From Clostridiaceae bacterium (GTDB taxonomy: Bacteria; Bacillota; Clostridia; Oscillospirales; Acutalibacteraceae), in assembly GCA_016290665.1 (NCBI GenBank), contig JAEEUW010000001.1, forward strand, positions 1-55,034: a DNA stretch of 55,034 bases, read 5' to 3'. The position numbers were made by a program, and so were the translations under genes. This document shows, piece by piece, positions 16,486-48,915 of this stretch. The first letter of the stretch is position 1; the number at the start of each line of letters is the position of its first letter. The notes under the pieces were generated by a model. That model was not told where the DNA came from. It did no database searches and saw only the letters and a program-made list of their open reading frames with translations.

Positions 16486-16509
16486 GGGTCGTTCCTCCTC
16501 AAATCAGCC

Positions 16510-17907: not shown

Positions 17908-17938
17908 AAGGAATCCCTCCCGGGACAAATGATTCTTG

Positions 17939-20011: not shown

Positions 20012-20044
20012 GAGCGCCTCCTGTGGTTCGGTGTTTCGTCTGCT

Positions 20045-20827: not shown

Positions 20828-20841
20828 GGCCGTTTCTCCCT

Positions 20842-23800
20842 TCATCTGACAAGTTTGATGGTTTTGATCTCAAACGGGCGGAAGAACAGCGTGAGCTTGC
20901 CGCCGTCCGCCGGCAGTTCTCCCTGCACGTCCTCCAGCAGATTGGTCAGCTGCGCTTTTTTGATCGGCGCCGACAGCGTCAGGTCGGTGCGGGTTTTGCT
21001 GCCCTCGCATTCATACAGGCGCAGCACCACGGCGCCGCTGTCGTCTTCGGCGGGCTTCACCGCCTCCACGATCACGTTCGGCGCGCCGACGGCAGCGAAC
21101 GGCGGAAGGTTTGCCGCCCCCTTTGCGTCGGCAACGGGCACGTTCAGCAGATAGGCGGGCTGCACCACCGTTTCGGCCGAAAAGTCGCCGGCGTGCGGCA
21201 GCAGCGCATAGGTCATTTCATGCAGCCCCCTGTCGCCCGTAAAGTCCGGGTGGGTACCGCCGCGGTGGAGCGACAGACGCAGGTTGCAGTCCAGCACACA
21301 GATGCCGTATTTGCAGTCGTTGAGCACGGCGACGCCGAAGCGCGGCTCGCTGATATCGGTGAAGTTGCGGTTGCAGACTTCGAATTTTGCATATTCCAGA
21401 CTGTTGTTGGCGGTCGTCGGGCGTTCGATGGAGCCGAACTGGATCTCGCTTCTGGCGCGGGTGGCCGCAACGTCCAGATCGAAGCCGACCTTCAGCAGGC
21501 GGTGCGGGCTGTTCCAGTTCACCAGCGTGTGGAAATCGATGCGCGGCGAGTCGGCGTAGCAGACCAGATCCTGCGTCACGGTCGTGCCGTTTTCGATTTC
21601 GAACGTGCTGCGCAGACGGATCTCGACCGCGCCGTCGGTCACAACGCTTCTGCCGCAAAAACCCTGCACGGGCTGCAGCTTCTCGATCACGTCGCGCTCC
21701 ACGTCCCAGTTGTCCCAGGCAAGGGGCACATCTTCGCCGAACAGCAGCACGCCCAGCGGCGCGCCGCCCTTTTTGCGCAGCTCGCGGCCGGAGGCTTTGT
21801 CAAGCAGGGACGCGATGTAGCCGTTTTCGTCAAAGGTCAGCGTGGCGAACGGCGTTTCCAGCCTCGTGCCGTCATAGGAAAACGGCGAGGGCGCGTCCAG
21901 CGGCCGATCGCTCATGCGAAGCACGGCGGAGCCGAAGCCGGGCAGCTTCACGCCGCCGACGGCCAGCTTTTCTTTGCCGCACAGGTCAATATAACGCTGC
22001 GAGGGATAGTCGGCCGCAAAGCCCGCCGCGTTCAGCACGGCGACGTCGCCGCGTGGGAAGGACAGCGTGTTGAACAGCGTCACGCTGTCGCTGCCGTCGG
22101 TCAGCTTTTCGGCGTAGGCGGCCGCCGCGTCGGCGTAGCTTTGCAGCAGGTCGTCCATCTCGGTCCGGTAGACGTCATAGACCGGCTGGATGCAGGTGCC
22201 GGGCAGGATGTCGTGGAACTGGTTTTTGAGCAGCGTCTTCAGCCAGCGGTCGCTGTTTTCGTTGCGCTTTTGGCCGGAAAGAACGTTGAAATATTCCATG
22301 TTGCGCAGAGCGTATTCCGCCTTGCGGTTTTTGCGCTTCACGTCGTGCATCTGGGTCAGCGTGCCGCGGTGCAGCTCCAGATAGAGCTCGTCGTCATAGA
22401 CCGGCAGATCGTCCTTCTGCGCCTCCAGCTCTTTGCCGAAATCGCTGATCGTCATCGATTCGATCTCGGGCAGGCCTTCCGTTTCGGAGGCGCGCAGCGA
22501 GGTTTCGATCATGCCCGGGGTCGGGCCGCCGCCGCCGTCGCCGAAGCCGTAGGCCAGAAGGCGCAGGTCGGAGGCATCCTTGAGCTGCAGGTCGCGCGTG
22601 GCGGCGCTGCAGTCGTTGACGTCGGGCCAGCAGTGGGTGCGGTTGAAGTGGGTGATTACCTCGCTGCCGTCAAGTCCCTTCCAGACGAAGCTTTCATAAG
22701 GGAACCGGTTCAGCTCGTTCCAGCCGATCTTGGTCGTGTAGAAGTATTTGACCTCGCTCTGACGCATAATCTGCGGAATGTTGGCGTTGTAGCCGAAGGT
22801 ATCGGGGAGCCAGAAGCTGTCGGCCGTGTAGCCGAAGTTTTCGCGCGTGAACTGCTGCCCCTTCAGGAACTGGCGCGCCATCAGCTCGCCCGAGGTGATG
22901 TTGCAGTCGCATTCCACGTAAACGCCGCCGTTCGGCTCATAGCGGCCCTCGGCCACACGTTTTTTCATCTCCGCAAAGATGGCGGGATAGTATTCCTTCA
23001 TCCATTCGCCGTGCAGCGCGGAGGACTGAATGAACTTATAGCTCGGATACTGCTCCATCAGGTGCAGCGCGTTGGCGTAGGTGCGCGCACATTTGCGGAT
23101 CGTTTCCGACACGGGCCAGAGCCAGGCGGTGTCCATGTGGCTGTGGCCGATGATGCCCACACGGCCGAACACGCGGCTGTTGCCGCCGCGGAAAAACGGG
23201 CGCGAAATCGCAAGCGCCTTGCGCACGCCCTCGGCCACGGCCGCTTCGGAGGCGTCCTTCGGATAGAGCGGCAGCACGTCGTTGATCTGTCGCAGCGCTT
23301 TTTTGGCGCGGGCGGAAGCAAAGCTGTCCTGCGGCAGCCGGCGCGCGGCGTTCAGCAGCTCGCGCAGGTCGAAGATCAGCGTGAACACTTCTTCGTCACG
23401 GGTGCAGATCTGCACGCCGTCAAAGCTGTGGCGGAAGGTCTGCGACGTGTCCGGCGCAAAATAGTCGTCGTAGGGATCGGTGTTGGGATCGTAATGGCCG
23501 GCGTAGCATTCAAACGCAAGCGCCAGCGTTTCTCCCGCTTTCGGCTTGCCGAGGTACTGCGCCGCATGGTGACCGCCGATAAAGTCGCGGTTTTTTGTGT
23601 TATAGATACCCTTGGGCACGCTGTTCAGGAAGAACAGCTGCTCATTGCCGCCGCAGGCCGACACCGCATAGAGCGCTTTGCCGTCCAGCGCGTCGGGCAC
23701 CGTGAACGTGCCCCTGAGCCACATGTTGTTCCATTCGCCGCCCCAGGACGTGCCGGGCGCAATCGGGGCAAAGCCGGCTTCCGGCACCGCGCGCAGGTGC

Positions 23801-23931
23801 TCTTCGGTGAACAGCGCCTGCGGGTTCTGCAGCTCGCCGACCTTCCGATACACCAGTTGTTCATAGATCTTCAGCGCGTGGCCGAGCTTTTCATAGATGC
23901 GATTGTTCAGGTTCTCGTTATACATAATCAC
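20842..23931 (-). CDS. GH38 alpha-mannosidase
   Basis: 1029 aa with the GH38 signature IIGHSHMDTAWLWP. Size and domain order match cytosolic bacterial GH38 enzymes. Start is GTG 23931 or ATG 23925. Confidence 0.9.
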   Translation of the reverse strand: MIMYNENLNNRIYEKLGHALKIYEQLVYRKVGELQNPQALFTEEHLRAVPEAGFAPIAPGTSWGGEWNNMWLRGTFTVPDALDGKALYAVSACGGNEQLFFLNSVPKGIYNTKNRDFIGGHHAAQYLGKPKAGETLALAFECYAGHYDPNTDPYDDYFAPDTSQTFRHSFDGVQICTRDEEVFTLIFDLRELLNAARRLPQDSFASARAKKALRQINDVLPLYPKDASEAAVAEGVRKALAISRPFFRGGNSRVFGRVGIIGHSHMDTAWLWPVSETIRKCARTYANALHLMEQYPSYKFIQSSALHGEWMKEYYPAIFAEMKKRVAEGRYEPNGGVYVECDCNITSGELMARQFLKGQQFTRENFGYTADSFWLPDTFGYNANIPQIMRQSEVKYFYTTKIGWNELNRFPYESFVWKGLDGSEVITHFNRTHCWPDVNDCSAATRDLQLKDASDLRLLAYGFGDGGGGPTPGMIETSLRASETEGLPEIESMTISDFGKELEAQKDDLPVYDDELYLELHRGTLTQMHDVKRKNRKAEYALRNMEYFNVLSGQKRNENSDRWLKTLLKNQFHDILPGTCIQPVYDVYRTEMDDLLQSYADAAAAYAEKLTDGSDSVTLFNTLSFPRGDVAVLNAAGFAADYPSQRYIDLCGKEKLAVGGVKLPGFGSAVLRMSDRPLDAPSPFSYDGTRLETPFATLTFDENGYIASLLDKASGRELRKKGGAPLGVLLFGEDVPLAWDNWDVERDVIEKLQPVQGFCGRSVVTDGAVEIRLRSTFEIENGTTVTQDLVCYADSPRIDFHTLVNWNSPHRLLKVGFDLDVAATRARSEIQFGSIERPTTANNSLEYAKFEVCNRNFTDISEPRFGVAVLNDCKYGICVLDCNLRLSLHRGGTHPDFTGDRGLHEMTYALLPHAGDFSAETVVQPAYLLNVPVADAKGAANLPPFAAVGAPNVIVEAVKPAEDDSGAVVLRLYECEGSKTRTDLTLSAPIKKAQLTNLLEDVQGELPADGGKLTLFFRPFEIKTIKLVR

Positions 23932-23941
23932 TCGCCCTCCG

Positions 23942-24991
23942 TCAAGCCTTGTTTTCGGGTTGCGGATTCACCACGGTCAGGATGTCCTTGTTCGAAACGA
24001 TGAACGTAATTCGCTCTTCGATGGAGGGACCGCCGTGGCTGCCGCCGATGCCGCCGTGATCGGTGGTGATCAGGATCAGCCAGTCTTCGCTGTCATAGGT
24101 CGGACGTTCCGTGATTGTTTCGATGATGTCGGCGCCGGTCGCCTCCGCGTCGCGGAAGGCGCTGATATATTTCGGATTCCCCAGGCCGAAGCCACTGCCA
24201 TGACCGGCATGATCGGTATATTCCAGCGTGGAGAAGATGAAGTCGGAGCAGTCTTTCTTTCTCAGGTCGGACAGAATGTTGAATTTCGTACCCGGATCAA
24301 AGAGTGCGCGGCGATAGGTCGCGTTGACGCCGTTTTCGCGCGCATAGACCTTTTCGGGATAATAGGTCGCGTCCTTTTTGCTGAAATGACCGTCCCAAGA
24401 AACGTAAAACGCGCTCTTGTCCACCGTGCCGTCTTCCACCAGCGAAAGCAGCAGCGTCTTAGGCTCCACTTCCTTCGGTTGGCCGTTGTTGTTGATGTGA
24501 TGCACATCGGCCCAGGCGCCGGTCAGCATGGAGCACCAGCCGGGCGCGGTCGAGGTGGCCTGGGTGTTTTCCGCGGGGAAGTTGACGCCGCCCGCAAAGC
24601 TGAAGACCGCGTGTCCGCCGTCGGAAAGCAGCATGTTGATGGCGCTCTTCTTTGCCGTTGCGAGCAGACGGAACGTGTCGACCTGACAGCCGTCATAGCC
24701 GATCACGATGGCTTTCTTTTCGGTCTTGCCCTCCGGCAGCGGCGAAGCAAAGTGCGCTTTGATCAGATCATAGACCGCGGTCTGCGGCAGCGCCTCCTGC
24801 CAGGTGTTTTCCAAAACCGGCAGCGTTTCCAACGACTGTTGGTAATCCTCCGCGGCAAGGACGGCGTCGTCGCCTTCCGCGAGCCACTTGCTGGGATGAT
24901 ACGTCAGGTTATACCAGACGTAGCCGCCGATGAGTCCGCCGATGAGCAGAACGACGAGAACGGGAATCAGGATCTTTGCTGCTTTCTTCAT
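23942..24991 (-). CDS. Membrane-anchored alkaline-phosphatase-superfamily phosphodiesterase (ENPP-like)
   Basis: ORF 23942..25006 trimmed to ATG 24991 (GGGAGG 7 nt upstream). N-terminal anchor ILIPVLVVLLIGGLIGG. Motifs VIGYDGCQ, TSTAPGWCSMLTG, YTDHAGHGSG and ITTDHGG. Confidence 0.75.
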   Translation of the reverse strand: MKKAAKILIPVLVVLLIGGLIGGYVWYNLTYHPSKWLAEGDDAVLAAEDYQQSLETLPVLENTWQEALPQTAVYDLIKAHFASPLPEGKTEKKAIVIGYDGCQVDTFRLLATAKKSAINMLLSDGGHAVFSFAGGVNFPAENTQATSTAPGWCSMLTGAWADVHHINNNGQPKEVEPKTLLLSLVEDGTVDKSAFYVSWDGHFSKKDATYYPEKVYARENGVNATYRRALFDPGTKFNILSDLRKKDCSDFIFSTLEYTDHAGHGSGFGLGNPKYISAFRDAEATGADIIETITERPTYDSEDWLILITTDHGGIGGSHGGPSIEERITFIVSNKDILTVVNPQPENKA

Positions 24992-25036
24992 AGTAAAACC
25001 TCCCAAAACCTTTTTATAAAGGTTAGATTTAACTAT

Positions 25037-25073
25037 ATAATATCACGAGGTGTCCAACAAATGTCCAACAAAA
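25037..25073 (-). promoter_or_regulatory. Extended -10 promoter with 23-bp tandem direct-repeat operator (copy 1)
   Basis: Minus strand reads TTTTGTTGGACATTTGTTGGACA (25073->25051), then 8 nt, then TGaTATTAT (25045->25037). It lies 45 nt upstream of ATG 24991. The 23-mer is identical to 33711->33689. Confidence 0.7.
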
Positions 25074-25116: not shown

Positions 25117-25155
25117 ACAAAAAGAGCACCCGCCGGGGCGGGTGCGTTCCTTTTT
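25117..25155. terminator. Bidirectional intrinsic terminator ending the upstream minus-strand transcription unit
   Basis: Hairpin GCACCCGC-CGGG-GCGGGTGC (25126..25145) with an A-run on the left and GTTCCTTTTTG on the right, just downstream of the stop at 25164. Confidence 0.7.
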
Positions 25156-25163: not shown

Positions 25164-25646
25164 TCAGTCTTTCACAAAGATCATGTCGACCAGGTTTTCC
25201 TGTTCATACTCGTCCTGCCACATCAGCTGGTTGGCCGATACGAACTGGATGCGGCCGTAGCCGTCTTCATATTCCGTCTTGCTTTCGGTCTCGTTGCCGC
25301 TTTCGTCAAAGACGGTCAGCGTCTTCACGCCGTTCGTGTAGTTCACGCGCCAGGTGTCGGCGTCATACACGCCGGACATCGTCCAGTCGTAGAACTCAAG
25401 CGCGGAGCTGCCCCAGTGGACGGAAATCTTCACTTCGTTGTTCTCGCCGGTCTCCACCGTAATGTTGCAGCGGCCGCAGACATAGTTGCCGGCAATCTCT
25501 TCGAACGTGACAGGCGTCGCTTCGGAGACGGTGTGTTCTTCGCTGTCCGGTTTCCCGGCGGGCGTTTCGGTTTTGCCGCAGGCCGCAAACAGCGCCAGGC
25601 AGAGCACGCAGGCAAGCAGCAAAGAGACGGCTTTTTTCATGTTCAT
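25164..25646 (-). CDS. Small lipoprotein of unknown function
   Basis: ORF 25164..25871 trimmed to ATG 25646 (GGGAGG SD). Signal peptide with lipobox (LALFAAC-GK). Confidence 0.65.
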   Translation of the reverse strand: MNMKKAVSLLLACVLCLALFAACGKTETPAGKPDSEEHTVSEATPVTFEEIAGNYVCGRCNITVETGENNEVKISVHWGSSALEFYDWTMSGVYDADTWRVNYTNGVKTLTVFDESGNETESKTEYEDGYGRIQFVSANQLMWQDEYEQENLVDMIFVKD

Positions 25647-25720: not shown

Positions 25721-27220
25721 TCAGGAAATCAGAGCGCTGATGATCGCGCCGAGATTGGAGAACAAAAGCGAGAACACGACCAGCAACAGCAGCAGCACCG
25801 CGTGCAGCTTGCGGCTGCGGACCAGCAGACCCACGTATTCGCGGATCTGCGCGTTCGGCCAGAAATACCATTTGGTTTTGCTCGCAATCCCGTCCGCGTG
25901 CAGACCGGCGTCGTTGGCCAGAATGCCGCTGCGGAACACGTGGTAGTTGGTGGTGGAAAAGATTACGCTTGCGTCCGGCTTGCGTTCGTCAATCAGCGCC
26001 TTGGAGCATTTCATGTTCTCCTGCGTGTTGGCAGACTGCGTTTCGGCAAGGACGTCCGTTTCCGGAATCCCCAGCGAAAGCAGATAGCGCCGCACGGCCT
26101 CCCCTTCGGCCATCACCTCGTCGCTCCCCTGCCCGCCGGAGGGCACCAGCACGGGCGCCTTGCCCGTGGCCTCCTTCTGCCGCCGATAGAACGCGGCTGC
26201 CCGGTCTGCGCGGCCCTTGAGAAGCGGATAGAGCGTGCCGTCCTTTCTGATCGCGCAGCCGAGAATCAGCACGTAATCATGCGTCAGGGGCGGCTTGCGC
26301 CGCGCGGCGATCACGCAGCAATACTGCGTTGCAAACAGCATGGCAAGGAAATACAGGAACAGTGCGGAAAACACCGTCCGGACGACCGAGATCCAGAGCG
26401 CGTTCGGCTCAAAGCTCAGCATCTGCGTGTTGACAAAGGCCAGCACAACCGCCGCCAGCACGCCGCCCATCATCAGCGCGGCCAGAATCAGCGCAAGCAG
26501 GTTGGTTCTGCGCAGACCCTCGTGCCGGATCAGCCAGACGTTGCTGACCGCCATGACCACCGAGAGCAGCAGAATGAACGGCAGCGAGAGCATCACCACC
26601 GCAGTCAGGGCATACTGCGCGGCAAAGAACAGAATTCTGCCGAGCGCCTCGCCCGGATTCACCAAACAGAACACCACCAGCCCGAAAAAGACGGCGCCGT
26701 GGAGCAGAAAGAACAGACTCAGGCCGAAATTCAGCACGGTATCGTAGGAAAAGAAGGTTTCGCGCTTTCTGCGCCGATACATCAAAAACAGATAGACGCC
26801 CGCAAACAGAAAGAATGCCGCCAAAGCGCCGCACAGGATATAGAACCCATTGAAATCCAGATCGGCCGGTTCCAGTATCGTGCCGAACCGGGTCACGTAA
26901 AGGAAGGAATAATGCCTGTCTTTGAGTGTGCCGTAATCTTCGCTTGTGTGCGGAAACACAGCTGCCACTTCGGTTCCGCCGGGCTGCTTTGCCCGAAAGG
27001 TGACGGCCCAGACCTCGTCCTTCTTTTCCACCGAGATCATTTCCACAACATCGGGATTCCCGATTTCGGCCGTCACGTTCTGATAGCCGTCCTTGCTCTC
27101 GGGCATATAGATGCTGTAGGTCCGCGCGGAGAACAGCAGCAGCACAAATGTGACGGCGCCGATACAGACGCCCGCAAGGGCGATCACAAGCAGATTCTTT
27201 TTCAGGTCTGTTCGCTTCAT
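25721..27220 (-). CDS. Polytopic membrane protein with C-terminal DUF218 (YdcF/ElyC-like) domain
   Basis: 499 aa with multiple hydrophobic helices. The DUF218 pattern follows (LILGCAIRKDG...VPSGGQG...TQSANTQENM...STTNYHVFRS). Confidence 0.75.
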   Translation of the reverse strand: MKRTDLKKNLLVIALAGVCIGAVTFVLLLFSARTYSIYMPESKDGYQNVTAEIGNPDVVEMISVEKKDEVWAVTFRAKQPGGTEVAAVFPHTSEDYGTLKDRHYSFLYVTRFGTILEPADLDFNGFYILCGALAAFFLFAGVYLFLMYRRRKRETFFSYDTVLNFGLSLFFLLHGAVFFGLVVFCLVNPGEALGRILFFAAQYALTAVVMLSLPFILLLSVVMAVSNVWLIRHEGLRRTNLLALILAALMMGGVLAAVVLAFVNTQMLSFEPNALWISVVRTVFSALFLYFLAMLFATQYCCVIAARRKPPLTHDYVLILGCAIRKDGTLYPLLKGRADRAAAFYRRQKEATGKAPVLVPSGGQGSDEVMAEGEAVRRYLLSLGIPETDVLAETQSANTQENMKCSKALIDERKPDASVIFSTTNYHVFRSGILANDAGLHADGIASKTKWYFWPNAQIREYVGLLVRSRKLHAVLLLLLVVFSLLFSNLGAIISALIS

Positions 27221-27315: not shown

Positions 27316-28026
27316 TCAGGAAGCGGATTTGGCAAGATATTCTTCCAGCGTCAGTCCGTTATCCATGATCTCTTCGGCGATCGCCGGGCTGTCGATATAG
27401 CGGAAGTGCCACGGCTCATAGGCATAGCCGGTAACGGCGTCCTTGCCTTCGGGGAAGCGCAGGATGAAGCCGTAATCGGCAAGCCGCTTGTGGATCTCGG
27501 CAAAGATTTCTTTTTCGGCGATCATCCGGTCATTGTCGTTGATGATCACGCCGTCCTTGATGATGCAGACGTCGATCGCAAGCGCGGTGTGGTGCTCGGA
27601 ATAGCCGGGCACGGCAACATACTTCTGCGTATAGTCAAGGCCGTATTCTTCCTCGAACTCCTTCCAGAGCTCCTCCTGACGCGCCACCGAACGGTAGGTG
27701 CTGTCGAGCAGGATCACGATGCCGTCCTTTTCCAAGTCCGCCTGCAGCGCGCGGAACGCCTGCAGCGCTTTCTTTTCTACCTTGAACACGTCGGTCGACA
27801 GATAGTCATTGCTTTCGTCCAGCGCCACGCCGTCCGGAACGGTGTTCTGCGCGTCTTCCAGCTCGATCACGGCTTCCCAGTTGTCGGGCAGCTTGTTTTC
27901 TTTGTTGACCAGTACGAGATAGTCATACTTCGGCGCTTCCGGCTGTTTGTCGCAGGCGGCCAGCACGCCGCAAAGACACACGGCGAACAGCAGCAGCGCC
28001 AGTGCGCGTTTCATTTGGATCTTCAC
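27316..28026 (-). CDS. VanY-like D-alanyl-D-alanine carboxypeptidase (peptidase M15B), lipoprotein
   Basis: ORF 27316..28080 trimmed to GTG 28026 (AAGGAGG 7 nt upstream). Lipobox VLAAC. Zn motifs SEHHTALAIDV and YEPWHFRY. Confidence 0.8.
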   Translation of the reverse strand: MKIQMKRALALLLFAVCLCGVLAACDKQPEAPKYDYLVLVNKENKLPDNWEAVIELEDAQNTVPDGVALDESNDYLSTDVFKVEKKALQAFRALQADLEKDGIVILLDSTYRSVARQEELWKEFEEEYGLDYTQKYVAVPGYSEHHTALAIDVCIIKDGVIINDNDRMIAEKEIFAEIHKRLADYGFILRFPEGKDAVTGYAYEPWHFRYIDSPAIAEEIMDNGLTLEEYLAKSAS

Positions 28027-28054: not shown

Positions 28055-29113
28055 TCAGCGTTCTTCATCAAACGCAACAACTGTGTCGGTTGCTGCCGAT
28101 TCGAAGATCGCTTCGATCAGCTTGAGGCACCGGCGCATCTGGCGGTGGGTCACCGTCTGCGCCGCGCCGTTGCGGATCACGTCATAGATATTGTCATAAT
28201 AGGCCGTCCATTCGCCATGCACCTTTTCCAGCGGGGCGTCGTGGATGGTCTCGTCCGTGCGGGGCGCCATGGTCTTGGTGATGCCCATGCCCGCCTTGAT
28301 CGGCACGGCGTCGATCTTGTCCCAGTTGTGCACCAGCGTCATTTTGCCGGAAAGATCCCAGTCTTCGATCACGGCGGTGCCGTTTTCGCCGAGGATGTAC
28401 CAGCGCGGCAGGGAGATGAAGTTGTTCGTGGTCACTTCCACGTAATAGCTCAGCCCGTTTTCAAACCGCAGCTCACAATAGAATCCGTCGTCGCATTCGT
28501 CGTTGGTGATCTGCGTGATCTGGGCCCAGACGCTTTTGAGCTTCACGCCGTCGTTCATCGTCAGCGCCTGATCGAGCAGATGGACGCCCCAGTCAAGCAC
28601 CATGCCGCCGCCGTGGATCTTCTCTCTGCGCCAGTCGCCGGGAATTCCGCGGGAGCCCTGCACGCGCGATTCGATGCGGAACACCTTGCCCAGCAGGTTC
28701 TTGTCGGCAATGTTCCGCATGGTCAGATAGTCTTCGTCCCAGCGGCGGTTCTGGTGCACGGTGAAGAGCCTGCCCGTCTCTTTCGATACGGCAATCATCT
28801 CGTCGAGCTCCCGAAGGTTCATGGCCACCGGCTTTTCCGAAATCACGTTTTTGCCCGCCCGCATTGCTTCGATGCAAAGCGGCTTATGCACATCGTTCCA
28901 GGTGGCGACCACCACCAGCTCCACGCTGTCGTCCGCCAGCAGATCTGCAAACGAGGTGTAGGTGTGAATGCCGCAGTTTCTTGCGTTCACAAGCTGATCG
29001 GGGTTGATATCCCACACGCCGGTCAGCTCAAATTTTTCCATTTCGGCAATGCGTTCGGTGTGCCAGCCGCCCATGCCGCCGTAACCGACAACGGCCACTT
29101 TGATCGGTTTCAT
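28055..29113 (-). CDS. Gfo/Idh/MocA-family NAD(P)-dependent oxidoreductase
   Basis: 352 aa. N-terminal Rossmann segment KVAVVGYGGMGGWH and the family-typical EKP motif (ISEKPVA). Confidence 0.88.
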   Translation of the reverse strand: MKPIKVAVVGYGGMGGWHTERIAEMEKFELTGVWDINPDQLVNARNCGIHTYTSFADLLADDSVELVVVATWNDVHKPLCIEAMRAGKNVISEKPVAMNLRELDEMIAVSKETGRLFTVHQNRRWDEDYLTMRNIADKNLLGKVFRIESRVQGSRGIPGDWRREKIHGGGMVLDWGVHLLDQALTMNDGVKLKSVWAQITQITNDECDDGFYCELRFENGLSYYVEVTTNNFISLPRWYILGENGTAVIEDWDLSGKMTLVHNWDKIDAVPIKAGMGITKTMAPRTDETIHDAPLEKVHGEWTAYYDNIYDVIRNGAAQTVTHRQMRRCLKLIEAIFESAATDTVVAFDEER

Positions 29114-29138
29114 CTGTTTTGCCTCACTTTGCTCTGAA

Positions 29139-30104
29139 TCAGACCCACCACATGCTGCCGGGCTGCTCGCCCATGATGCAGCGCTTGAGCATGGAGACGG
29201 CCCGTTCCAGACCCTCCCGCTGGCTCATGATGGAGTCTTCGTGTTCAATCGAGATCGCGTGGTCATAGCCGACCATGCGCAGGTTGCTGATGATCTCTTT
29301 CCAATAAAGCTCGTCGTGGCCGTAGCCGACCGCGCGGAAGACCCACGAGCGGTGAATCTCGTCGCCGTAGGGCTTGTTGTCGAGCACGCCGTTGACGGCG
29401 GTGTTGTATTTGTCCACCTTGGTGTCCTTGGCGTGGAAATGGAAGATCACGTCGCCCAGCGCGCGGATGACCGCCACGGGCTCCATGCCCTGCCAGATCA
29501 GATGGCTCGGGTCAAGGTTGGCGCCCAGCGCGGGGCCGATCTCCCTGCGGATGCGCAGCATGGATTCGGTGTTGTAGACGCAGAAGCCGGGATGCAGCTC
29601 AAAGCCGATCTTGTCTACGCCGTGGTCCGCCGCGAACTGCACGAAATCGGACCAATAGGGCAGCAGCACATCGTTCCACTGATAGTTCAGAATATCGCCG
29701 AACTCGTTGGGCCACGGACAGGTGACCCAGTTCGGGTTCTCCGAATTCGGGCAGTCGCCCGGGCAGCCGGAAAAGGTGTTGATCTGGTGCACGCCGAGCT
29801 TTTCGGCAAGCAATATCGCCTGCTTCATCTCATCATCGAACCGCTTTGCAACGTCCTTGTTCGGATGCACGGGGTTGCCGTGGCAGCTGATGGCGCTGAT
29901 GCCGACGTTGTATTTCGCAATCAGGTCCCTGAACTTCTGCAGCTCGGTCTCGCTGTGCAGCAGAACGGCGGGGTCCGCGTGCTGTTTGCCGGGGTAGCCG
30001 CCCGCGCCGATCTCCACCATCTCGATGCCGAGCGAGGTGAAATAGTCGAGCGCCTTTTCCAGCGGCCAGCTGCCGAGCATGTTTGTCAATACGCCGAGTT
30101 TCAT
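29139..30104 (-). CDS. Xylose-isomerase-like TIM-barrel protein (sugar phosphate isomerase/epimerase family), paralogue 1
   Basis: ORF 29139..30125 trimmed to ATG 30104 (AAGGAG 8 nt upstream). AP_endonuc_2-type patterns (EIGAGGYPG, FELHPG, FHAKD, SIEHED). Confidence 0.85.
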   Translation of the reverse strand: MKLGVLTNMLGSWPLEKALDYFTSLGIEMVEIGAGGYPGKQHADPAVLLHSETELQKFRDLIAKYNVGISAISCHGNPVHPNKDVAKRFDDEMKQAILLAEKLGVHQINTFSGCPGDCPNSENPNWVTCPWPNEFGDILNYQWNDVLLPYWSDFVQFAADHGVDKIGFELHPGFCVYNTESMLRIRREIGPALGANLDPSHLIWQGMEPVAVIRALGDVIFHFHAKDTKVDKYNTAVNGVLDNKPYGDEIHRSWVFRAVGYGHDELYWKEIISNLRMVGYDHAISIEHEDSIMSQREGLERAVSMLKRCIMGEQPGSMWWV

Positions 30105-30117
30105 GATTGTTTCTCCT

Positions 30118-30852
30118 TTATCCAAAGTGCTTTTTCAAATACGCCATGCTTCTTGTCACGTCCGAGATGCCGTCCGGCACCGGGTCGTCGTTTTCCACAA
30201 TGACCCACTCCATGCCGATCTTTTCGGCCGCGTCCAGAATGGCGGCAATGTCGTTTTCCCCTTCCCCGATGGCGCACGGGGTGCCGTCCACGCCGTCTTT
30301 CAGGTGGATCAGGCAGATGCGGTCTTTGTTTTCACGCAAAAAGGTTTTGTTGTCCACGCCCGCGCGAAAGCTCCAGTAGGTGTCGATTTCCAGCCACATC
30401 CGTTCGCCGAGCCGTTCCAGAATCGTTCTGTCGTCCGCGCTGTCTTCCGGCGGCTGAAACTCGCCGGTGTGATTGTGGAAATAGACCTTGACGCCCTGCG
30501 GTTCAAACGCGTCGTTTGCGCCGCCGAGGATCTCGATCACACGGCAAAGATCCTGTTCCGTGCCGGTGGGCCCGCCGCCGACGCCGACGCAGGCGCAGCC
30601 GAGCGTTTGATAAAACGCCAGCGTTTTGTCTCTGTTTTCCGGGGTGAAATCATCCACGCCCAGATGGGTGCCGACACAGACGAGGCCGAGTTCGTCAAGC
30701 TTTGCTTTGATCGTTTCCGCAGGAAGACCCTGGGTCCCCGCGAATTCCACGCCCTCATAGCCGGCCTGCTTCACGTGTTCCAGCGCTTTGAGCAGATCGT
30801 CGCCGTTGTCAATGCCGTCACGCACGGAATACATCTGTACCGCGAATTTCAC
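30118..30852 (-). CDS. Xylose-isomerase-like TIM-barrel protein, paralogue 2
   Basis: 244 aa. N-terminus MKFAVQMYSVRD... followed by GYEGVEFAG, YFHNHTGEF and HLKDG. Confidence 0.85.
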   Translation of the reverse strand: MKFAVQMYSVRDGIDNGDDLLKALEHVKQAGYEGVEFAGTQGLPAETIKAKLDELGLVCVGTHLGVDDFTPENRDKTLAFYQTLGCACVGVGGGPTGTEQDLCRVIEILGGANDAFEPQGVKVYFHNHTGEFQPPEDSADDRTILERLGERMWLEIDTYWSFRAGVDNKTFLRENKDRICLIHLKDGVDGTPCAIGEGENDIAAILDAAEKIGMEWVIVENDDPVPDGISDVTRSMAYLKKHFG

Positions 30853-30866
30853 GCCGCATCACTCCT

Positions 30867-31676
30867 TTACATGATGGCTTTCAGATAATCGACGCTTTCT
30901 TTGATGCACTGCATCGGCGTCTTGCCCTTGCTCGGGCTGTCGATCTCAACGATGCCCCATTCGGTGCCGGATTCTTCGGCAGCCCTGACAAGCGCGGGAA
31001 TATTCTGCAGACCCTGGCCGAGCGGACGGAATTCAAAGTCGCCGACCGTCTCTTCCTTTTGGCCGTCGTTCACGCCGATCAGGGCATACATGTTCTCGCT
31101 CTTTTTGCCCGCAAAATCCTTGAAGTGGATAATGTCCACGCGGCCCGCGTATTTGCGGATGTATTCCACGGGGTCCGCGCCGCCGACGTTGACCCAGCAG
31201 GTGTCGAGCTCGGCCAGCAGCAGATCGGCCGGAATGGTCTCATAGATCACGTCGAGCGCATATTTTCCGTCGATCTTTTCAAATTCAAAATCATGGTTGT
31301 GATACGCCAGACGCATGCCGTTCTTTTTGGCAAAGGCGCCGAGGATCGCCGCGTCGCCGATCATCTTTTCAAAGCCCGGCTTACCCGGACGGTCGCTTTC
31401 GCCGAGCCACGGGATGGCCACAAATTTGCAGCCGATGGCGGCATAGGATTCCAGCACGAACGGGTTGTCGCGCATCTCGTCGAGCGGCACGTGCGCCGAA
31501 ACGGGCACAAGGCCGTATTTGCCGCAAAGCGCCTTCACCTCTTCGGCCGATTTGCCGAACAGGCCGGCGAACTCCACGCCTTCATAGCCCATGGCGGCCA
31601 CTTCTTTGAGCGTGCCTTCAAAATCTTTTTCCATTTCGTCGCGAACGGAATAAAGCTGTACACCGATTTTCATCAT
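30867..31676 (-). CDS. Xylose-isomerase-like TIM-barrel protein, paralogue 3
   Basis: ORF 30867..31682; start among three in-frame ATGs (31676 preferred, AAGGA SD). Contains KIGVQLYSVRD, GYEGVEFAG, AYHNHDFEF and HFKD. Closest in pattern to paralogue 2. Confidence 0.85.
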   Translation of the reverse strand: MMKIGVQLYSVRDEMEKDFEGTLKEVAAMGYEGVEFAGLFGKSAEEVKALCGKYGLVPVSAHVPLDEMRDNPFVLESYAAIGCKFVAIPWLGESDRPGKPGFEKMIGDAAILGAFAKKNGMRLAYHNHDFEFEKIDGKYALDVIYETIPADLLLAELDTCWVNVGGADPVEYIRKYAGRVDIIHFKDFAGKKSENMYALIGVNDGQKEETVGDFEFRPLGQGLQNIPALVRAAEESGTEWGIVEIDSPSKGKTPMQCIKESVDYLKAIM

Positions 31677-31678
31677 GA

Positions 31679-32479
31679 TCATCCTTTATAAAGCAGTTTG
31701 GAAATATAGTCGATGGTGAAATCCACGCCCCAGTCGCCCATGGCGCCTTTCCAGGTGTCCGAATGCGGTTCAATGGAGAGCATGCCGTCGTAGCCGACTG
31801 CATAGAGCAGGCCGAGCACGGCGTTCCAGTTTGTGCCGTCCAGCCCGGCGGGCGGGTCGTCCACGTGTTCGCCGGCAACGTTCAGCGTGCCCTTGACGTG
31901 GAAGTGGAAGATTTTGCTGCCGAATTCCCGGATCTCCGCCAGGCAGTCGCCGTGGTGGACGTTGATGCAGTGCGAGGGGTCAAATTTGATTCCGAGCCCC
32001 GGCACGGCCTCCAGCACGATGCGCCAGACGGACGGCTCCCGGATCCAGTTGTTCCAGTCGCAGTTATAGACCGCAACCTTCACGCCCTTCGTTTCGCCGT
32101 AGGCCACCGCTTCACGCAGGAACCGCACGGCGGCGTTGAGGTTGTCGAGATAGGTCAGCTCCCGCACATAGTTGACGCCGGTGTTGAACACGGGCGCGCC
32201 GAGCGCGGCGGCAATGTCGATCAGGCGTCGGGTGTTGCAGCGTCCCTCTTCCAGCAGTTCCCCGTCGGGGCCGACCTTGTCTTCGCCCCAGCGGCCGAGC
32301 GCGCCGAGGTGCAGATCATGGTCTGCATAAACCCTTTTCAGTTCCGGAATGCGCGCCTCCAGCAGATCGAGATCCGCGCCGACGTTGTAGCAGTATTCGA
32401 GATAGTGCAGACCCTTGCCGGCAGCCCATTCTGCGCTTTGAACGTCGGGGTCCGCAATGATGCCGAGTTTCATCGTCAT
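31679..32479 (-). CDS. Xylose-isomerase-like TIM-barrel protein, paralogue 4
   Basis: 266 aa with TIM-barrel patterns (VAVYNCDWNNW, KFDPSH, FHFHVKG, SIEPHSD). Confidence 0.85.
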   Translation of the reverse strand: MTMKLGIIADPDVQSAEWAAGKGLHYLEYCYNVGADLDLLEARIPELKRVYADHDLHLGALGRWGEDKVGPDGELLEEGRCNTRRLIDIAAALGAPVFNTGVNYVRELTYLDNLNAAVRFLREAVAYGETKGVKVAVYNCDWNNWIREPSVWRIVLEAVPGLGIKFDPSHCINVHHGDCLAEIREFGSKIFHFHVKGTLNVAGEHVDDPPAGLDGTNWNAVLGLLYAVGYDGMLSIEPHSDTWKGAMGDWGVDFTIDYISKLLYKG

Positions 32480-32488
32480 AGTCTTACC

Positions 32489-33643
32489 TTACACTTCCGG
32501 AATCTCAATGGCGATTTCATGGCCGGCCGCCGCGGAGCGGACGATGCCGTCGATGATCGCCTGATTGATGACGATTTCGCTGGAGGGCACGCTCGGCTTG
32601 CCGCCCTGCTGAATCGCGTCCACAAAGGAGCGGATCTTTTCATAGAACAGATCCTTCGTCGGCTTCAGCGGCACCTTGTATTCGATCTCTTCGCCGCAGA
32701 CGGTCTTATAGATGGTCAGCGGCTCGTCGAATTCGCCGTTCCAGCAGTCGGTGGAGGGAATGCGCAGACCGCCTCTGGTGCCGAGGATGATCGCGTCGCC
32801 CGGGGTGTCCATGTTCATGGCCCAGGAGATACGGAAGTCGAGGATGATGTCGCCCTCCAGACGGATGAAGCCCGCGGCAAAATCGTCCACGCCGAATTTC
32901 TCGGCATAGTCGGGATGGCCGGGATAATAGTTCGGGTCCTTGCCGAAATAGCTGGAGGTATAGCCGGTCACGGTCAGCGGCTTCGGATAGCCCACCGCGC
33001 CGAGCAGCATGTCGAGCGAATAGGTGCCGATGTCGCCCACGGCGCCGATGCCGCCGGTTCCCTTTTCAATGAAGGACGTGCCGAACGGGGTCGGAATGCC
33101 GCGCCGTCTGCCGCCGCCGGACTGGATGTAATAGACCTTGCCCAGCTCGCCGGACTGCACGATCTTCTTGATCATCTGCATGTTCGCGCTCATGCGCGGC
33201 TGGAAGCCGATGGTGAGAATCTTGCCGCTGCGCTTTTCGGCGCGCATGACCTCGATCGCCTCGTCCAGCGTGACGGTGAACGGCTTTTCCAGCATGACGT
33301 TGATGCCGGCGTCCAGCGCGTGGATGGCGCAGGGCGCGTGCTGGCAGTTGTAGGTGCAGATGCTCACGCCGTCCAGGTCGGGCTCCGCGGCGATCATGGC
33401 CTCGTCGCTCTCATAGATGCGCGCGCCGGTGATGCCGAACCGTTCGGCGAAGGCCGCCGCCTTGCCGGGGATCAGATCCGCCAGCGCGACGATCTCCACG
33501 TCGTCCATTTTCAGATAGTTTTCCGCGTGGCATTCGGCGATCCAGCCGGTGCCGATGATGCCGATCTTCAGTTTTCTGCCGGTCGTTTTGGTTTCGGTTT
33601 CATGGATCTCTTTGAAAGCGTCCAAGCCTGCTGCGTTTGCCAT
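32489..33643 (-). CDS. Gfo/Idh/MocA-family NAD(P)-dependent oxidoreductase (first gene of operon)
   Basis: ORF 32489..33709 trimmed to ATG 33643 (AAGGAGG SD). Rossmann segment KIGIIGTGWIAECH and EKP motif (MLEKPFT). Confidence 0.88.
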   Translation of the reverse strand: MANAAGLDAFKEIHETETKTTGRKLKIGIIGTGWIAECHAENYLKMDDVEIVALADLIPGKAAAFAERFGITGARIYESDEAMIAAEPDLDGVSICTYNCQHAPCAIHALDAGINVMLEKPFTVTLDEAIEVMRAEKRSGKILTIGFQPRMSANMQMIKKIVQSGELGKVYYIQSGGGRRRGIPTPFGTSFIEKGTGGIGAVGDIGTYSLDMLLGAVGYPKPLTVTGYTSSYFGKDPNYYPGHPDYAEKFGVDDFAAGFIRLEGDIILDFRISWAMNMDTPGDAIILGTRGGLRIPSTDCWNGEFDEPLTIYKTVCGEEIEYKVPLKPTKDLFYEKIRSFVDAIQQGGKPSVPSSEIVINQAIIDGIVRSAAAGHEIAIEIPEV

Positions 33644-33674: not shown

Positions 33675-33711
33675 ATCATAGCACAGATTGTCCAACAAAT
33701 GTCCAACAAAA
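33675..33711 (-). promoter_or_regulatory. Extended -10 promoter with 23-bp tandem direct-repeat operator (copy 2)
   Basis: Minus strand reads TTTTGTTGGACATTTGTTGGACA (33711->33689), then 8 nt, then TGcTATGAT (33683->33675). It lies 31 nt upstream of ATG 33643. Architecture matches copy 1. Confidence 0.7.
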
Positions 33712-33801: not shown

Positions 33802-33843
33802 CAAAAAAACGGCCCGACGTCTGCCGGGCACAGACGTCAAGCC
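33802..33843 (-). terminator. Intrinsic terminator of the glnA-ANTAR operon
   Basis: Minus strand reads CGGCTTGACGTCTG-tgcccgg-CAGACGTCGGGCCG followed by TTTTTTT, about 95 nt after the stop at 33939. Confidence 0.8.
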
Positions 33844-33938
33844 GTTTTGCGCAGCTCTTGCAAAGCCGCCTTTTCATTATAATATAGTCCGCTCTTTTTC
33901 GGGGGGCGGTTCGGGGCGCCAGAGCGGGTTTTGCGCGG

Positions 33939-34520
33939 TTACCCCTGTTCCACAATCTCCTGCGCGACCGCGCGGCGGGTCACGCAGCGGTCCATCGCCT
34001 GCTTTTCGATATAGCGGTGCGCCTGCGGCTCGTCCATCCCGCGGTGCTCGATCAAAATCCACTTGGCGCGGTTGACCAGACGGATTTCCTCCATCTTCTC
34101 CTGCAGGGTGAGCGTCTTTTTTTCGGTTTTGCGCAGCCGTTCGCGGGCGGTCGCCATCCACTGCAGCGCCGTTGCCATCCGCCCCGCGGAGGTCGGCTTC
34201 AAAAGCGTGAATACGCCGTAGGGCGTCAGCCGTTCGGTCACTTCCGCATAGAACGCCTCGCGCAGCAGCAAAAGCGCAACCGTCTCGTTGCCGCCGCAGA
34301 CGTCCACGGCAAAGCGCAGGCCCATGTCGTCGGGCAGCGGCGCGTTGATGATGACGAAATCAAAGGCGTGTTCGGCAACCGCGCGCTTAGCGGTGCTCAC
34401 ATCGCCCACCACGCGCACCGGGTCGTAGCCGGAGGAAGGCAGAAGCGGCAGCAGCGCGGCGTTGAACTGTTCCGCCGCGGAGACGACAAGAACACTGTAG
34501 ACGCGTTCCTTCAGATCCAT
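33939..34520 (-). CDS. ANTAR-domain RNA-binding antiterminator with degenerate (pseudo-)receiver domain
   Basis: 193 aa. C-terminal ANTAR pattern RAKWILIEHRGMDEPQAHRYIEKQAMDRCVTRRAVAQEIV. N-terminal CheY-like fold lacks the acidic pocket (VVSAAE) and has Asn where the phospho-acceptor Asp is expected (DFVIINAPLPDD). Confidence 0.85.
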   Translation of the reverse strand: MDLKERVYSVLVVSAAEQFNAALLPLLPSSGYDPVRVVGDVSTAKRAVAEHAFDFVIINAPLPDDMGLRFAVDVCGGNETVALLLLREAFYAEVTERLTPYGVFTLLKPTSAGRMATALQWMATARERLRKTEKKTLTLQEKMEEIRLVNRAKWILIEHRGMDEPQAHRYIEKQAMDRCVTRRAVAQEIVEQG

Positions 34521-34559: not shown

Positions 34560-35771
34560 TTATCTGTTGCAGTAGATATCCAGCACGCGCGCCGGCACGT
34601 GGGCGCGGATGAATTCGCTGGTCGCCGCCGCGGTACAGGCGGACGCGAGCGACGCCGGCAGCTTCTGATACTGCGCGAGCGTCTGGGCGTTTTCCTTGAA
34701 CAGATTGACGTCAGACGGCGCCGGCAGAGGCAGGTTCTTTTCCAGACCGTTCAGCGCGGCGTAGATTATCAGCGCGAACGCGAGATAGGGGTTCGCCGTG
34801 GGGTCGGCGGAGCGCAGCTCCATGCGGCGGTATTCGTCGGCGGCCGCAGGCACGCGGATCAGCTGCGAGCGGTTTTCACCCGACCAGGAGATATAGGCCG
34901 GGGCCTTGTTCTTGCCCAGCCGCTGATAGGAGCTTTCGGTCGGGTTCAAAAACGCCGTCATGTCCTGCGCGTGCGCCAGCACGCCAGCCATCACGTTCTG
35001 CAGCACGGAATCGTCCGCGCACGGCTGCACGGAAAGGTTGATGTGGAACCCGTTGCCCGGCGCGTGCGGCAAAGGCTTTGCGGAAAAATCGGCAAACAGA
35101 CCGTTGCGGTGCGCCACGGTCTTGACCACGGTCTGGAAGGTCATGGCCTGATCGGCGGCGGTCAGCGCGTCGGCGTAGCGGAAATCGATCTCGTTCTGGC
35201 CGGGACCCTGTTCGTGGTGGGAGCTTTCGGGGCGGATGCCCATCTGCTCCAGCGTCAGGCAGATCTCGCGGCGCACGTTTTCGCCCTTGTCCTCGGGCGC
35301 GATGTCCATGTAGCCCGCGTCGTCATAGGGCTCCTTCGTCGGCCTGCCGTTTTCGTCCAGACGGAACAGATAGAATTCCTGCTCGGCGCCGAAGAAGAAC
35401 GAATACCCCTGCCGCGCGGCGTCCGCCATCGCCTGCTTGAGCAGACTGCGCGTGTCGCATTCAAAGGGCGTACCGTCGGGATAGGTGATGCGCGTGAACA
35501 TGCGCACCACGCGGCCCTGCTCGGGCCGCCACGGCAGCAGCGTCAGAGTGTCCGGCTCCGGCCAGAGCAGCAGGTCGGAGCGCGCCTCGTCGCCGAACCC
35601 GGCAATGGCCGACGCGTCAAACGCGATCCCGTAGCGGAACGCGCGCTCCAGCTCGTCGGAAAGAATCGAGATATTCTTCTGCTTGCCGAGCACGTCGCAG
35701 AACGCCAGACGGATAAACTTGATATCCTCCTCCTGCACAAACTGCAGAACCTCGTCTTTGGAAAATTGCAA
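34560..35771 (-). CDS. glnA: Glutamine synthetase (type I)
   Basis: ORF 34560..36095 trimmed to TTG 35771 (AGGAGG 8 nt upstream). The N-terminus then begins at the conserved beta-grasp (KDEVLQFVQEEDIKFIRLAFCDVLG). GS motifs PGNGFHINLS and DPTANPYLAFA. Confidence 0.88.
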   Translation of the reverse strand: MQFSKDEVLQFVQEEDIKFIRLAFCDVLGKQKNISILSDELERAFRYGIAFDASAIAGFGDEARSDLLLWPEPDTLTLLPWRPEQGRVVRMFTRITYPDGTPFECDTRSLLKQAMADAARQGYSFFFGAEQEFYLFRLDENGRPTKEPYDDAGYMDIAPEDKGENVRREICLTLEQMGIRPESSHHEQGPGQNEIDFRYADALTAADQAMTFQTVVKTVAHRNGLFADFSAKPLPHAPGNGFHINLSVQPCADDSVLQNVMAGVLAHAQDMTAFLNPTESSYQRLGKNKAPAYISWSGENRSQLIRVPAAADEYRRMELRSADPTANPYLAFALIIYAALNGLEKNLPLPAPSDVNLFKENAQTLAQYQKLPASLASACTAAATSEFIRAHVPARVLDIYCNR

Positions 35772-35790
35772 AGGAAGCACCTCCTGATTG

Positions 35791-35855
35791 TCTGAAAAAG
35801 AAATCGCCCATTCAGGCTCAGCTTGGCTGAGCCTGAATGAACGCCGTTGCTCATT
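35791..35855 (-). promoter_or_regulatory. glnA 5' leader: hexaloop hairpin overlapping an intrinsic-terminator-like stem-loop (candidate ANTAR-controlled attenuator)
   Basis: Minus strand has a 7-bp hairpin AATGAGC-AACGGC-GTTCATT (35855->35836). It is followed by a perfect 14-bp stem CATTCAGGCTCAGC / GCTGAGCCTGAATG (35839->35809, 3-nt loop) and then GGCGATTTCTTTTTC. The two structures share 4 nt. Confidence 0.6.
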
Positions 35856-35861
35856 GATTTT

Positions 35862-35890
35862 ATTATACGCACGAAAGACCACCGCGTCAA
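35862..35890 (-). promoter_or_regulatory. SigA-type promoter of glnA
   Basis: Minus strand reads TTGACG (35890->35885), a 17-nt spacer, then TATAAT (35867->35862). Confidence 0.7.
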
Positions 35891-35989
35891 GAGAAAACGG
35901 CAAAAAAACACATTCCACAAAAACGGTGCGCGCCGTCCGCCGCTTTTTGGATTGTTTGCAACATTTTAAAAAAAGATGACCGTTTTTTG

Positions 35990-48914: not shown

Positions 48915-48915
48915 G

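Follow-up and report, generated by a model that had tools for sequence, protein, structure and literature searches.

A six-gene oxidoreductase and TIM-barrel module in a Clostridiaceae bacterium: a probable cytoplasmic pathway for non-hydrolytic glycoside cleavage

A route that oxidises, eliminates, hydrates and finally reduces was recognised in 2023-2024 as a broad-specificity alternative to the classical glycosidases, and most of its characterisation comes from Bacteroidota and Agrobacterium. In the published route, C3 of the sugar is oxidised by a Gfo/Idh/MocA-family (GFO) enzyme that binds NAD tightly, a lyase abstracts H-2 and releases the aglycone to leave a 2-hydroxy-3-keto-glycal, a hydratase converts this glycal into a 3-keto sugar, and reduction of the latter regenerates the cofactor. 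Here, we describe a module of six consecutive genes (positions 28055-33643, minus strand) from a Clostridiaceae bacterium (GenBank assembly GCA_016290665.1, contig JAEEUW010000001.1, positions 1 to 55,034; the whole stretch of 55,034 nucleotides (nt) is termed the window), in which two GFO oxidoreductases, named OXB and OXA, bracket four xylose-isomerase-like TIM barrels, named TIM4, TIM3, TIM2 and TIM1 in the order of transcription. Judged by homology, the module probably encodes a cytoplasmic, non-Koshland glycoside-cleaving pathway of the oxidise-eliminate-hydrate-reduce type.

The P2B11 cluster (Iso1-Oxido1-Oxido2-Iso2) comes from a fosmid of an unidentified Gram-positive gut bacterium, and its enzymes accept glucuronides as well as 6-phospho and 6-sulfo glycosides (Nasseri et al., bioRxiv 10.1101/2024.03.25.586180). 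By its description, it resembles the window module in lacking a DUF1080 protein and being made up only of GFO oxidoreductases and "sugar phosphate isomerase" TIM barrels, in having no transporter or regulator nearby, and in its mechanism of oxidation, elimination and hydration. The published order is repeated by one locus of our synteny comparison (L012, TIM3-OXB-OXA-TIM1 by homology), and another (L020) starts in the order OXB-TIM3-TIM1-OXA and continues with a second, cassette-II-like set of three genes. However, P2B11 consists of four genes and the window module of six, which adds TIM4 and a second lyase paralogue, and the P2B11 substrates are not known to apply to the window module. The four-step pathway of Agrobacterium tumefaciens (GlycDH-AtOGE-AtHYD-reductase; Bitter et al., 2023, PMC10628242; structures 8BVK and 8RO4) also makes use of two TIM barrels, of which AtOGE is the best Protein Data Bank (PDB) match of both TIM3 and TIM2, but there the first oxidation is performed by the flavoenzyme GlycDH instead of a GFO NAD enzyme. 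In the AL1-AL4 and BT2156-BT2160 systems of Alistipes and Bacteroides thetaiotaomicron, a lyase (AL1) homologous to TIM3 and TIM2 works with two GFO oxidoreductases in a stepwise 3-keto mechanism; the enzymes are periplasmic, with Sec, lipoprotein or TAT signals, and a DUF1080 jelly-roll protein serves as alpha-lyase and hydratase, whereas the window proteins are predicted to be cytoplasmic and their barrels are all of the TIM type. The DgpA/DgpB/DgpC system of strain PUE and DfgA-E of Eubacterium cellulosolvens likewise oxidise C3 before a metal-dependent beta-elimination in a TIM barrel, and finally the iol pathway of the Bacillus subtilis type (IolG, IolE, IolI, IolH) has the two protein superfamilies in common with the module. 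Compared with these systems, the window module appears as an extended Gram-positive layout, cytoplasmic by prediction and all-TIM, with two lyase paralogues and an extra conserved barrel, TIM4.

The gene order is read directly from the DNA. Genuine genes were chosen by third-position GC content (GC3), the window having about 60% G+C, and together with Pfam this gives OXB (32489-33643, 384 amino acids (aa), GFO_IDH_MocA at 8e-26 plus C-terminal domains), TIM4 (31679-32479, 266 aa, AP_endonuc_2 at 1.4e-25), TIM3 (30867-31682, 269-271 aa, AP_endonuc_2 at 4.8e-17), TIM2 (30118-30852, 244 aa, AP_endonuc_2 at 2.1e-19), TIM1 (29139-30104, 321 aa, AP_endonuc_2 at 1.4e-30) and OXA (28055-29113, 352 aa, GFO_IDH_MocA at 5e-26, likewise with the C-terminal domain), all on the minus strand, where AP_endonuc_2 denotes the xylose-isomerase-like TIM barrel. 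With family-consistent starts, the genes are spaced by 9, 2 (or a 4-nt overlap), 14, 13 and 25 nt. An earlier note on this DNA had reported an oxidoreductase, four TIM barrels and an oxidoreductase in a row with gaps of 2-25 nt, and both statements are borne out, the first also by two public contigs from this organism (JGI samples 3300041004 and 3300041006), in which the gene calls match except for the start of TIM2. The public TIM2 call (238 aa, ATG at 30834) is too short: the true start is the GTG at 30852, preceded 8 nt upstream by an AAGGAG ribosome-binding site, and the resulting N-terminus, VKFAVQMYSVRD, fits the family and brings back the conserved first beta-strand. All six proteins lack a signal peptide, and the module is predicted to be cytoplasmic. 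As the earlier note had also stated, no transporter, no iolB/C/D/J/A-type domain and no kinase within the module was found by Pfam among the GC3-supported open reading frames of the 55-kb window. The order OXB-TIM4-TIM3-TIM1-OXA, without TIM2, is kept in two other species, which hold the nearest relatives of the module (L003 and its companion L004 at 77-93% protein identity, L008 at 72-90%), so that the arrangement is more than chance. All components, the second oxidoreductase included, stand in a single operon, whose six genes are never more than 25 nt apart and follow one promoter, with conserved synteny.

The clearest evidence on the chemistry comes from TIM3 and TIM2. TIM3 matches AtOGE (8BVK) at 1.2e-28, or at 2.7e-35 with a profile of 22 sequences, and AL1 (8TCS/8TCD) at 2.4e-18, or at 7e-30 with the profile, which matches IolE structures only at 4.9e-5; the corresponding values for TIM2 are 1.4e-15 (AtOGE) and 9e-9 (AL1). 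AtOGE is a Mn2+-dependent O-glycoside beta-eliminase with His132 and His189 as metal ligands and His134 as the catalytic residue (PMC10628242), and AL1 is the Alistipes 3-keto-beta-glucoside 1,2-lyase, for which residues H178, H180, D211, W214 and H237 were described in a preprint. We identified 8TCS as AL1 because its residues H148, H150, D181, W184 and H207 equal these five exactly at an offset of +30. When TIM3, TIM2 and two TIM2 orthologues were aligned with AtOGE and AL1, the residues H64, H128-N-H130, D160, W163, H186 and E246 (TIM3 numbering) were found to be invariant in all six sequences, a set that covers H132, H134, D163 and H189 of AtOGE as well as H103, H178, H180, D211, W214, H237 and the catalytic Glu of AL1. 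The lyase catalytic residues can therefore be read off directly: the constellation of the metal-dependent TIM-barrel 3-keto-glycoside 1,2-lyases (H-x-H, D-x-x-W, H and the catalytic Glu) is complete in both barrels. We propose that TIM3 is a 3-keto-glycoside 1,2-lyase (beta-eliminase) and that TIM2 is a second lyase with a different specificity.

For both oxidoreductases, the best characterised relatives are glycoside 3-dehydrogenases. The top PDB matches of OXB are DgpA (7XR9, 3.7e-41) and DgpA1 (9M3D, 1.1e-38), with a nearly full-length alignment (residues 24-371 against DgpA). DgpA is an NAD-dependent C3-oxidase acting on puerarin and daidzin, whose glucose pocket is formed by K100, R159, W166, D182 and H186 (PMC9939296); OXB retains the Lys, Arg and Asp of this pocket (K120 in an EKP motif, R179-181 and D204) and has Phe in place of the Trp. 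OXA is matched by an uncharacterised Listeria protein (3E18, 1.2e-97) and then by DgpA2 in complex with isoorientin (9M37, 1.2e-55), and it holds the EKP Lys and a D174-x3-H178 dyad. OXB is a proposed GFO-family, NAD-dependent glycoside 3-dehydrogenase, and OXA a proposed 3-keto-sugar reductase or, alternatively, a second glycoside 3-dehydrogenase with another specificity.

TIM1 is strongly conserved: the top 120 matches show 73-99% identity, and all but two of them are 321 aa long. Its profile finds SCO6571 (2ZDS, 2.3e-22, uncharacterised) followed by AtHYD (8RO4, 2.6e-9) in the PDB, and a Foldseek search with its AlphaFold2 model (predicted local distance difference test score, pLDDT, 76) returns the same two in the same order (2ZDS at 1.3e-16; AtHYD at 5.7e-12, TM-score 0.71). 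AtHYD, a 2-hydroxy-3-keto-glucal hydratase, is by profile and predicted fold the nearest characterised relative of TIM1, in which the canonical residues E169, D198, H224 and E287 are invariant; TIM1 is a proposed 2-hydroxy-3-keto-glycal hydratase, the relationship being remote. TIM4 belongs to an uncharacterised subfamily. In the PDB its profile matches the Art22 isomerase (1.3e-7), MJ1311 and D-tagatose 3-epimerases (1.4e-5 or weaker), and Foldseek with its model (pLDDT 95) places Art22, ketose 3-epimerases and AtHYD in the lead with similar scores. TIM4 is flanked by a GFO gene and an OGE-type lyase gene in six of the seven contexts read, and on sequence and model the candidate roles are those of an auxiliary lyase or an isomerase. 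In Bacteroidota, the DUF1080 protein provides both the alpha-anomer lyase and the hydratase activity; as it is absent from the Gram-positive clusters, TIM4 or TIM1 might plausibly act as a lyase specific for the alpha-anomer.

The pathway that we propose, all of whose steps follow from homology, would begin with oxidation of the glycoside C3-OH by OXB with NAD+. TIM3 and TIM2, as metal-dependent beta-eliminases, would then take H-2 and release the aglycone to give a 2-hydroxy-3-keto-glycal, which TIM1 would hydrate to a 3-keto sugar, and this would be reduced to the free sugar by OXA or by the NADH bound to OXB. TIM4, the extra conserved barrel, might serve as a lyase on the other anomer or on a different sugar, or might isomerise the 3-keto sugar. 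Several observations weigh against this assignment. All six proteins stay below every NCBIfam equivalog cut-off, and the oxidoreductases fall far below those of the BT_2158 and BT_2159 families (750 and 650 bits), with 25 and 57 bits for OXA and 42 and 40 bits for OXB, which also sets them apart from the AL/BT systems. OXB has Tyr208 at the position of His186 in the DgpA pocket. TIM1 and AtHYD are distant (17% identity, TM-score about 0.7) and the TIM1 model contains low-confidence loops. TIM4 has no close characterised relative, and in the profile alignment to Art22 its Tyr138 sits at the first canonical catalytic or metal-binding Glu, which is apparently absent.

The earlier note had spoken of four paralogous barrels, which holds only in part. 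In an all-against-all BLASTP of the barrels, TIM2 and TIM3 are related (32% identity, E 7e-25) and TIM1 and TIM4 show a weak local match (E 5e-9), but the remaining pairs are insignificant and linked only at the superfamily level. Judged by sequence, the barrels are three or four distinct subfamilies and do not reflect a recent tandem amplification.

How the six genes came together can be followed across roughly 90 related loci read in the synteny comparison. Relatives of TIM3 number more than 7,500 in the protein collection, those with names belonging to Clostridia (Acutalibacteraceae, Oscillospiraceae, Ruminococcaceae and Lachnospiraceae) with a few from Bacteroidales, and the genome nearest by TIM3 is the rumen metagenome-assembled genome RUG13829 (72%); for TIM1, there are at least 8,000 relatives among the scored candidates, all of which match. 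An OXB homologue (at least 57% identity, within 400 nt and on the same strand) adjoins the TIM3 homologue in 54 of 80 genome loci, is missing from 19 that have room for it, and the other 7 are truncated. OXA stands directly after TIM1 in the window and in L001, L003/L004, L008, L020, L088-L091 and L211-L214, and directly before it in L012; L215 has TIM1 without OXA. These two recurring adjacent pairs, OXB with TIM3 and TIM1 with OXA, are observed directly and fit consecutive steps of a pathway. Other Clostridiales carry GFO-TIM4-TIM2-TIM1(-OXA) cassettes (L088-L091 and L215) with TIM4 homologues of about 50% identity and TIM2 orthologues (41-50%) in the TIM2 slot; in L088-L091, the first GFO protein has 361-364 aa and is 30% identical to OXB where compared. 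A further set, GFO-TIM2-like-TIM1-OXA, is found with TIM1 homologues of 74% identity in L211-L214. Seen from these sequences, the six-gene layout is most simply explained as a fusion of an OXB/TIM3 pair with a TIM4-TIM2-TIM1-OXA cassette, and the module would hold two lyase paralogues, TIM2 and TIM3, because two cassettes, both of them widespread, were fused. When the same-strand neighbours of 72 TIM3-OXB pairs were screened for transporters, glycoside hydrolases (GHs) and phosphoesterases, only GFO (16 of 142) and TIM (7 of 142) genes recurred; the neighbours are heterogeneous and give no clue to the substrate.

The module has its own promoter, preceded by a tandem-repeat operator (33675-33710, minus strand), in which TTTGTTGGACA is repeated perfectly in tandem (33689-33710, two units), with 8 nt between the end of the repeat and the TATGAT hexamer that belongs to an extended -10 element, TGTGCTATGAT (33675-33685), followed by AAGGAGG and the OXB start. 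An identical 22-nt repeat (25051-25072) lies in a second operator with extended -10 (25036-25072, minus strand) in front of an array of hydrolase and phosphoesterase genes. The earlier note had the module and the array share a promoter/operator; the repeat is indeed shared, but the promoters are separate and each stands behind a terminator, namely the intrinsic terminator of the upstream glnA-ANTAR unit (33806-33848, minus strand), whose 19-bp stem followed by a T run separates this unit from the module, and a predicted one before the second operator (25126-25145, minus strand). Control of the module by the ANTAR regulator was considered and rejected in view of the strong terminator at 33848-33806 and of L003, where three genes lie between the ANTAR gene and the module. 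Downstream of the module, on the same strand, are a VanY lipoprotein (27316-28014), a DUF218 membrane protein (25721-27220) and a small lipoprotein (25164-25646), separated from OXA and from one another by 40, 95 and 74 nt; no terminator is predicted before 25145-25126, and the module transcript probably continues through these genes to 25164. The three neighbours are not kept in L003 or L008.

L003/L004 and L008 keep the operator itself in front of their OXB orthologues. In L003 the repeat (7971-7988) lies in a divergent region in common with a Metallophos gene, and in L008 there are two repeats (7864-7880 on the minus and 7942-7958 on the plus strand), one of them inverted and facing a divergent EEP-MBL operon (MBL, metallo-beta-lactamase). 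Scanning metagenome contigs with a 21-mer yielded at least 119 stretches (L092-L210), with 2-5 tandem 11-bp units per site, and the genes downstream fall into 141 clusters, 30 of which were covered by a Pfam scan. The largest cluster is a response regulator of 270-295 aa (23 members in 22 loci; receiver domain at 1.9e-24, Trans_reg_C at a sub-threshold 1e-4) and the second largest a PF06580-type histidine kinase; others comprise pairs of Metallophos and regulator genes (6 loci), STAS/anti-sigma-type kinases, SpoIIE phosphatases, Hpt, PHP, HAD, tyrosine-phosphatase-like and sulfatase-like proteins and type IV secretion genes. We infer that the 22-nt element is most likely bound by a divergent OmpR-like regulator that controls its own gene and, in this clade, a large regulon, and the clusters suggest an autoregulated two-component system (response regulator plus PF06580 kinase) whose regulon is rich in phosphoesterase and signalling genes. 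The 11-bp period had also raised the idea of a Pho box, i.e. a PhoP/PhoB site, with the phosphoesterases forming a Pho regulon, which found no support: no pst or pho genes occur in the 30 of 141 clusters scanned, and autoregulation links the site to a PF06580-type kinase and to a response regulator whose Trans_reg_C match is weak. The OmpR-like architecture of the repeat site holds all the same.

Behind the second operator, the array runs in the order phosphodiesterase (PDE), GH38, EEP, GH3, Metallophos and PDE. That the module complements this co-regulated array, as the earlier note had suggested, is less well founded than it seems: in L003 and L008, which hold the nearest relatives, module and array are not linked, and the regulon is very large and heterogeneous, so that the operator is weak evidence for a specific metabolic coupling of the two. 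The module and the array are co-regulated, which is no evidence of a dedicated metabolic partnership. Phosphoesterase genes also lie beside related cassettes, namely Metallophos in L003, L005 and L211-L213, PDE in L005, and EEP and MBL in L008; this may hint at phosphorylated substrates. In several species (L211-L213, L003 and L005), GFO-TIM-TIM1-OXA cassettes are flanked by calcineurin-like phosphoesterase genes, as many as three in one locus and among them the purple-acid-phosphatase type, and the simple TIM3-OXB pairs lack such an association.

A more specific version of the oxidise-eliminate-hydrate-reduce reading takes these findings jointly, and we consider it possible, though doubtful. 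It holds that TIM4 performs a fifth, undescribed step in GFO-TIM4-lyase-TIM1-OXA, in a rumen-clade pathway wired into a phosphoesterase-rich, OmpR-like regulon. The candidates for TIM4 would then be a 3-keto-glycoside lyase for the alpha-anomer or a different sugar, taking the place of the Bacteroidota DUF1080 enzyme, or an isomerase of 3-keto sugars. Candidate substrates would be phosphorylated or phosphodiester-linked glycoconjugates over plain glycosides, such as cell-wall sugar-phosphate diesters, phosphoglycans or nucleotide-derived glycosides.

Readings that do without the cleavage of O-glycosides have to be weighed as well. The module might interconvert sugars without breaking a glycosidic bond, by epimerising or isomerising rare or anhydro-sugars along an Lgd-type or 1,5-anhydrofructose-type route, which we regard as improbable. 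The ketose 3-epimerase/isomerase-like fold of TIM4 and TIM1 is consistent with such a route, 1,5-anhydro-D-fructose reductase and levoglucosan dehydrogenase are themselves GFO enzymes, and the four-enzyme logic of the Lgd operon is alike. However, OXB scores 73 and OXA 54 bits with the equivalog of levoglucosan dehydrogenase (NF052479), whose cut-off is 650 bits, the two best-assigned barrels, TIM3 and TIM2, are by homology lyases with a complete eliminase active site, and TIM4 apparently lacks one of the two catalytic Glu residues of the ketose 3-epimerases.

It is very improbable that the module deglycosylates C-glycosides in the manner of DgpA/B/C or DfgA-E, with plant flavonoid C-glucosides as substrates, as the earlier note had also considered. 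The likeness lies in the oxidoreductases, as OXB is closest to DgpA and DgpA1 and OXA to DgpA2 of C-glycoside-degrading gut bacteria, and in the habitat of the host clade, the rumen and gut, where such substrates are abundant. The difference lies in the barrels: none matches DgpC, DfgA or CarB (7EXZ, 7EXB, 7DNM) at E<0.1 by sequence or profile, and the 50 best Foldseek matches of TIM4 and of TIM1 include no DgpC/CGD chain, on which grounds membership of any barrel in the DgpC/CGD family was rejected. No extra open reading frame for a DgpB/DfgB-type beta subunit occurs inside the module, where none would fit because the gaps are 25 nt or less. The window thus has neither the alpha (DgpC/DfgA-type) nor the beta subunit, its lyases are of the O-glycoside type, and according to the literature, 3-keto-C-glycosides are not cleaved by AtOGE and AL1-type lyases.

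Least probable of all is a cyclitol branch, likewise raised by the earlier note, in which IolG/IolX-like dehydrogenases and IolE/IolI/IolH-like barrels would interconvert or dehydrate inositols and feed iol genes elsewhere: the two superfamilies in common, the 3-keto mechanism reported to work on carbocyclic pseudo-sugars too, and the many phosphoesterases nearby, including the EEP and PDE families, to which inositol-phosphate and phosphosphingolipid enzymes belong, are set against weak scores 3-10 times under the equivalog cut-offs (IolG, TIGR04380, cut-off 355 bits: OXA 108.8 and OXB 93.6; IolE, TIGR04379, cut-off 290 bits: TIM3 54, TIM2 35, TIM1 29 and no match for TIM4), a TIM3 profile that favours AtOGE/AL1 over IolE by 25-30 orders of magnitude, glycoside 3-dehydrogenases as the best characterised relatives of both oxidoreductases, and a 55-kb window in which the remaining iol domains were not found.

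Of the contexts named by the earlier note, it is 3-keto-glycoside chemistry of the oxidise-eliminate-hydrate-reduce type that gains support from the homology of OXB to DgpA, OXA to DgpA2, TIM3 and TIM2 to AtOGE/AL1 and TIM1 to AtHYD; a comparison of the barrels by sequence, profile or predicted structure, of the kind that the note had proposed, places TIM3 and TIM2 in the AtOGE/AL1 type and TIM1 nearest to AtHYD and disfavours the Iol and DgpC types. This chemistry itself is already known, and the useful leads are its breadth in Clostridia and TIM4. By homology, gut and rumen Clostridia appear to carry oxidise-eliminate chemistry very widely, built from interchangeable two-gene and four- or five-gene cassettes. 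Such enzyme sets bear on how Gram-positive bacteria may cleave plant, drug and thio-glycosides without annotated glycoside hydrolases, a capacity that escapes CAZy-based annotation.

Several further features of the window were observed. The array (6105-25006, minus strand) mixes compartments: signal peptides are found in one phosphodiesterase (PDE2, 15472-16485), in Metallophos (16510-17910) and in an MBL-TIM fusion, the other phosphodiesterase (PDE1, 23942-24994) has an N-terminal membrane anchor, and no signal peptide is seen in GH38, the two GH3 proteins, the GH63/MGH1-like protein, the WbsX-like protein, EEP, the second Metallophos or an FGGY kinase. A gap of about 300 nt (15166-15471) may begin another transcription unit. 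The fusion (13345-15165, minus strand) is a secreted protein of 606 aa, in which a signal peptide and a metallo-beta-lactamase domain are joined to a xylose-isomerase-like TIM barrel, the fifth in the window, which is related to the module barrels only at the superfamily level; in L008, a stand-alone MBL gene is part of the operon, divergent from the module, that the operator controls.

On the upstream side of the module, glnA is called at 34560-35918 (minus strand) with 452 aa, and its L003 orthologue is called with 403 aa. Inside the 5′ end of this call lie a promoter close to the consensus (35890-35862) and a long hairpin that resembles a terminator (35843-35805), so the leader at 35805-35890 looks like an attenuator for glnA, directly downstream of which is the ANTAR response-regulator gene (33939-34520). 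An Rfam scan of the window matched no family, the glnA leader included. Elsewhere in the window (47128-51402, minus strand), a pyruvate formate-lyase-like glycyl-radical enzyme of 828 aa is accompanied by a radical-SAM (S-adenosylmethionine) activase and a 283-aa protein without a Pfam match, with a GntR/FCD regulator gene (51405-52409) on the same strand directly upstream; the glycyl-radical enzyme and its activase, which are unrelated to the module, confirm an anaerobic host.

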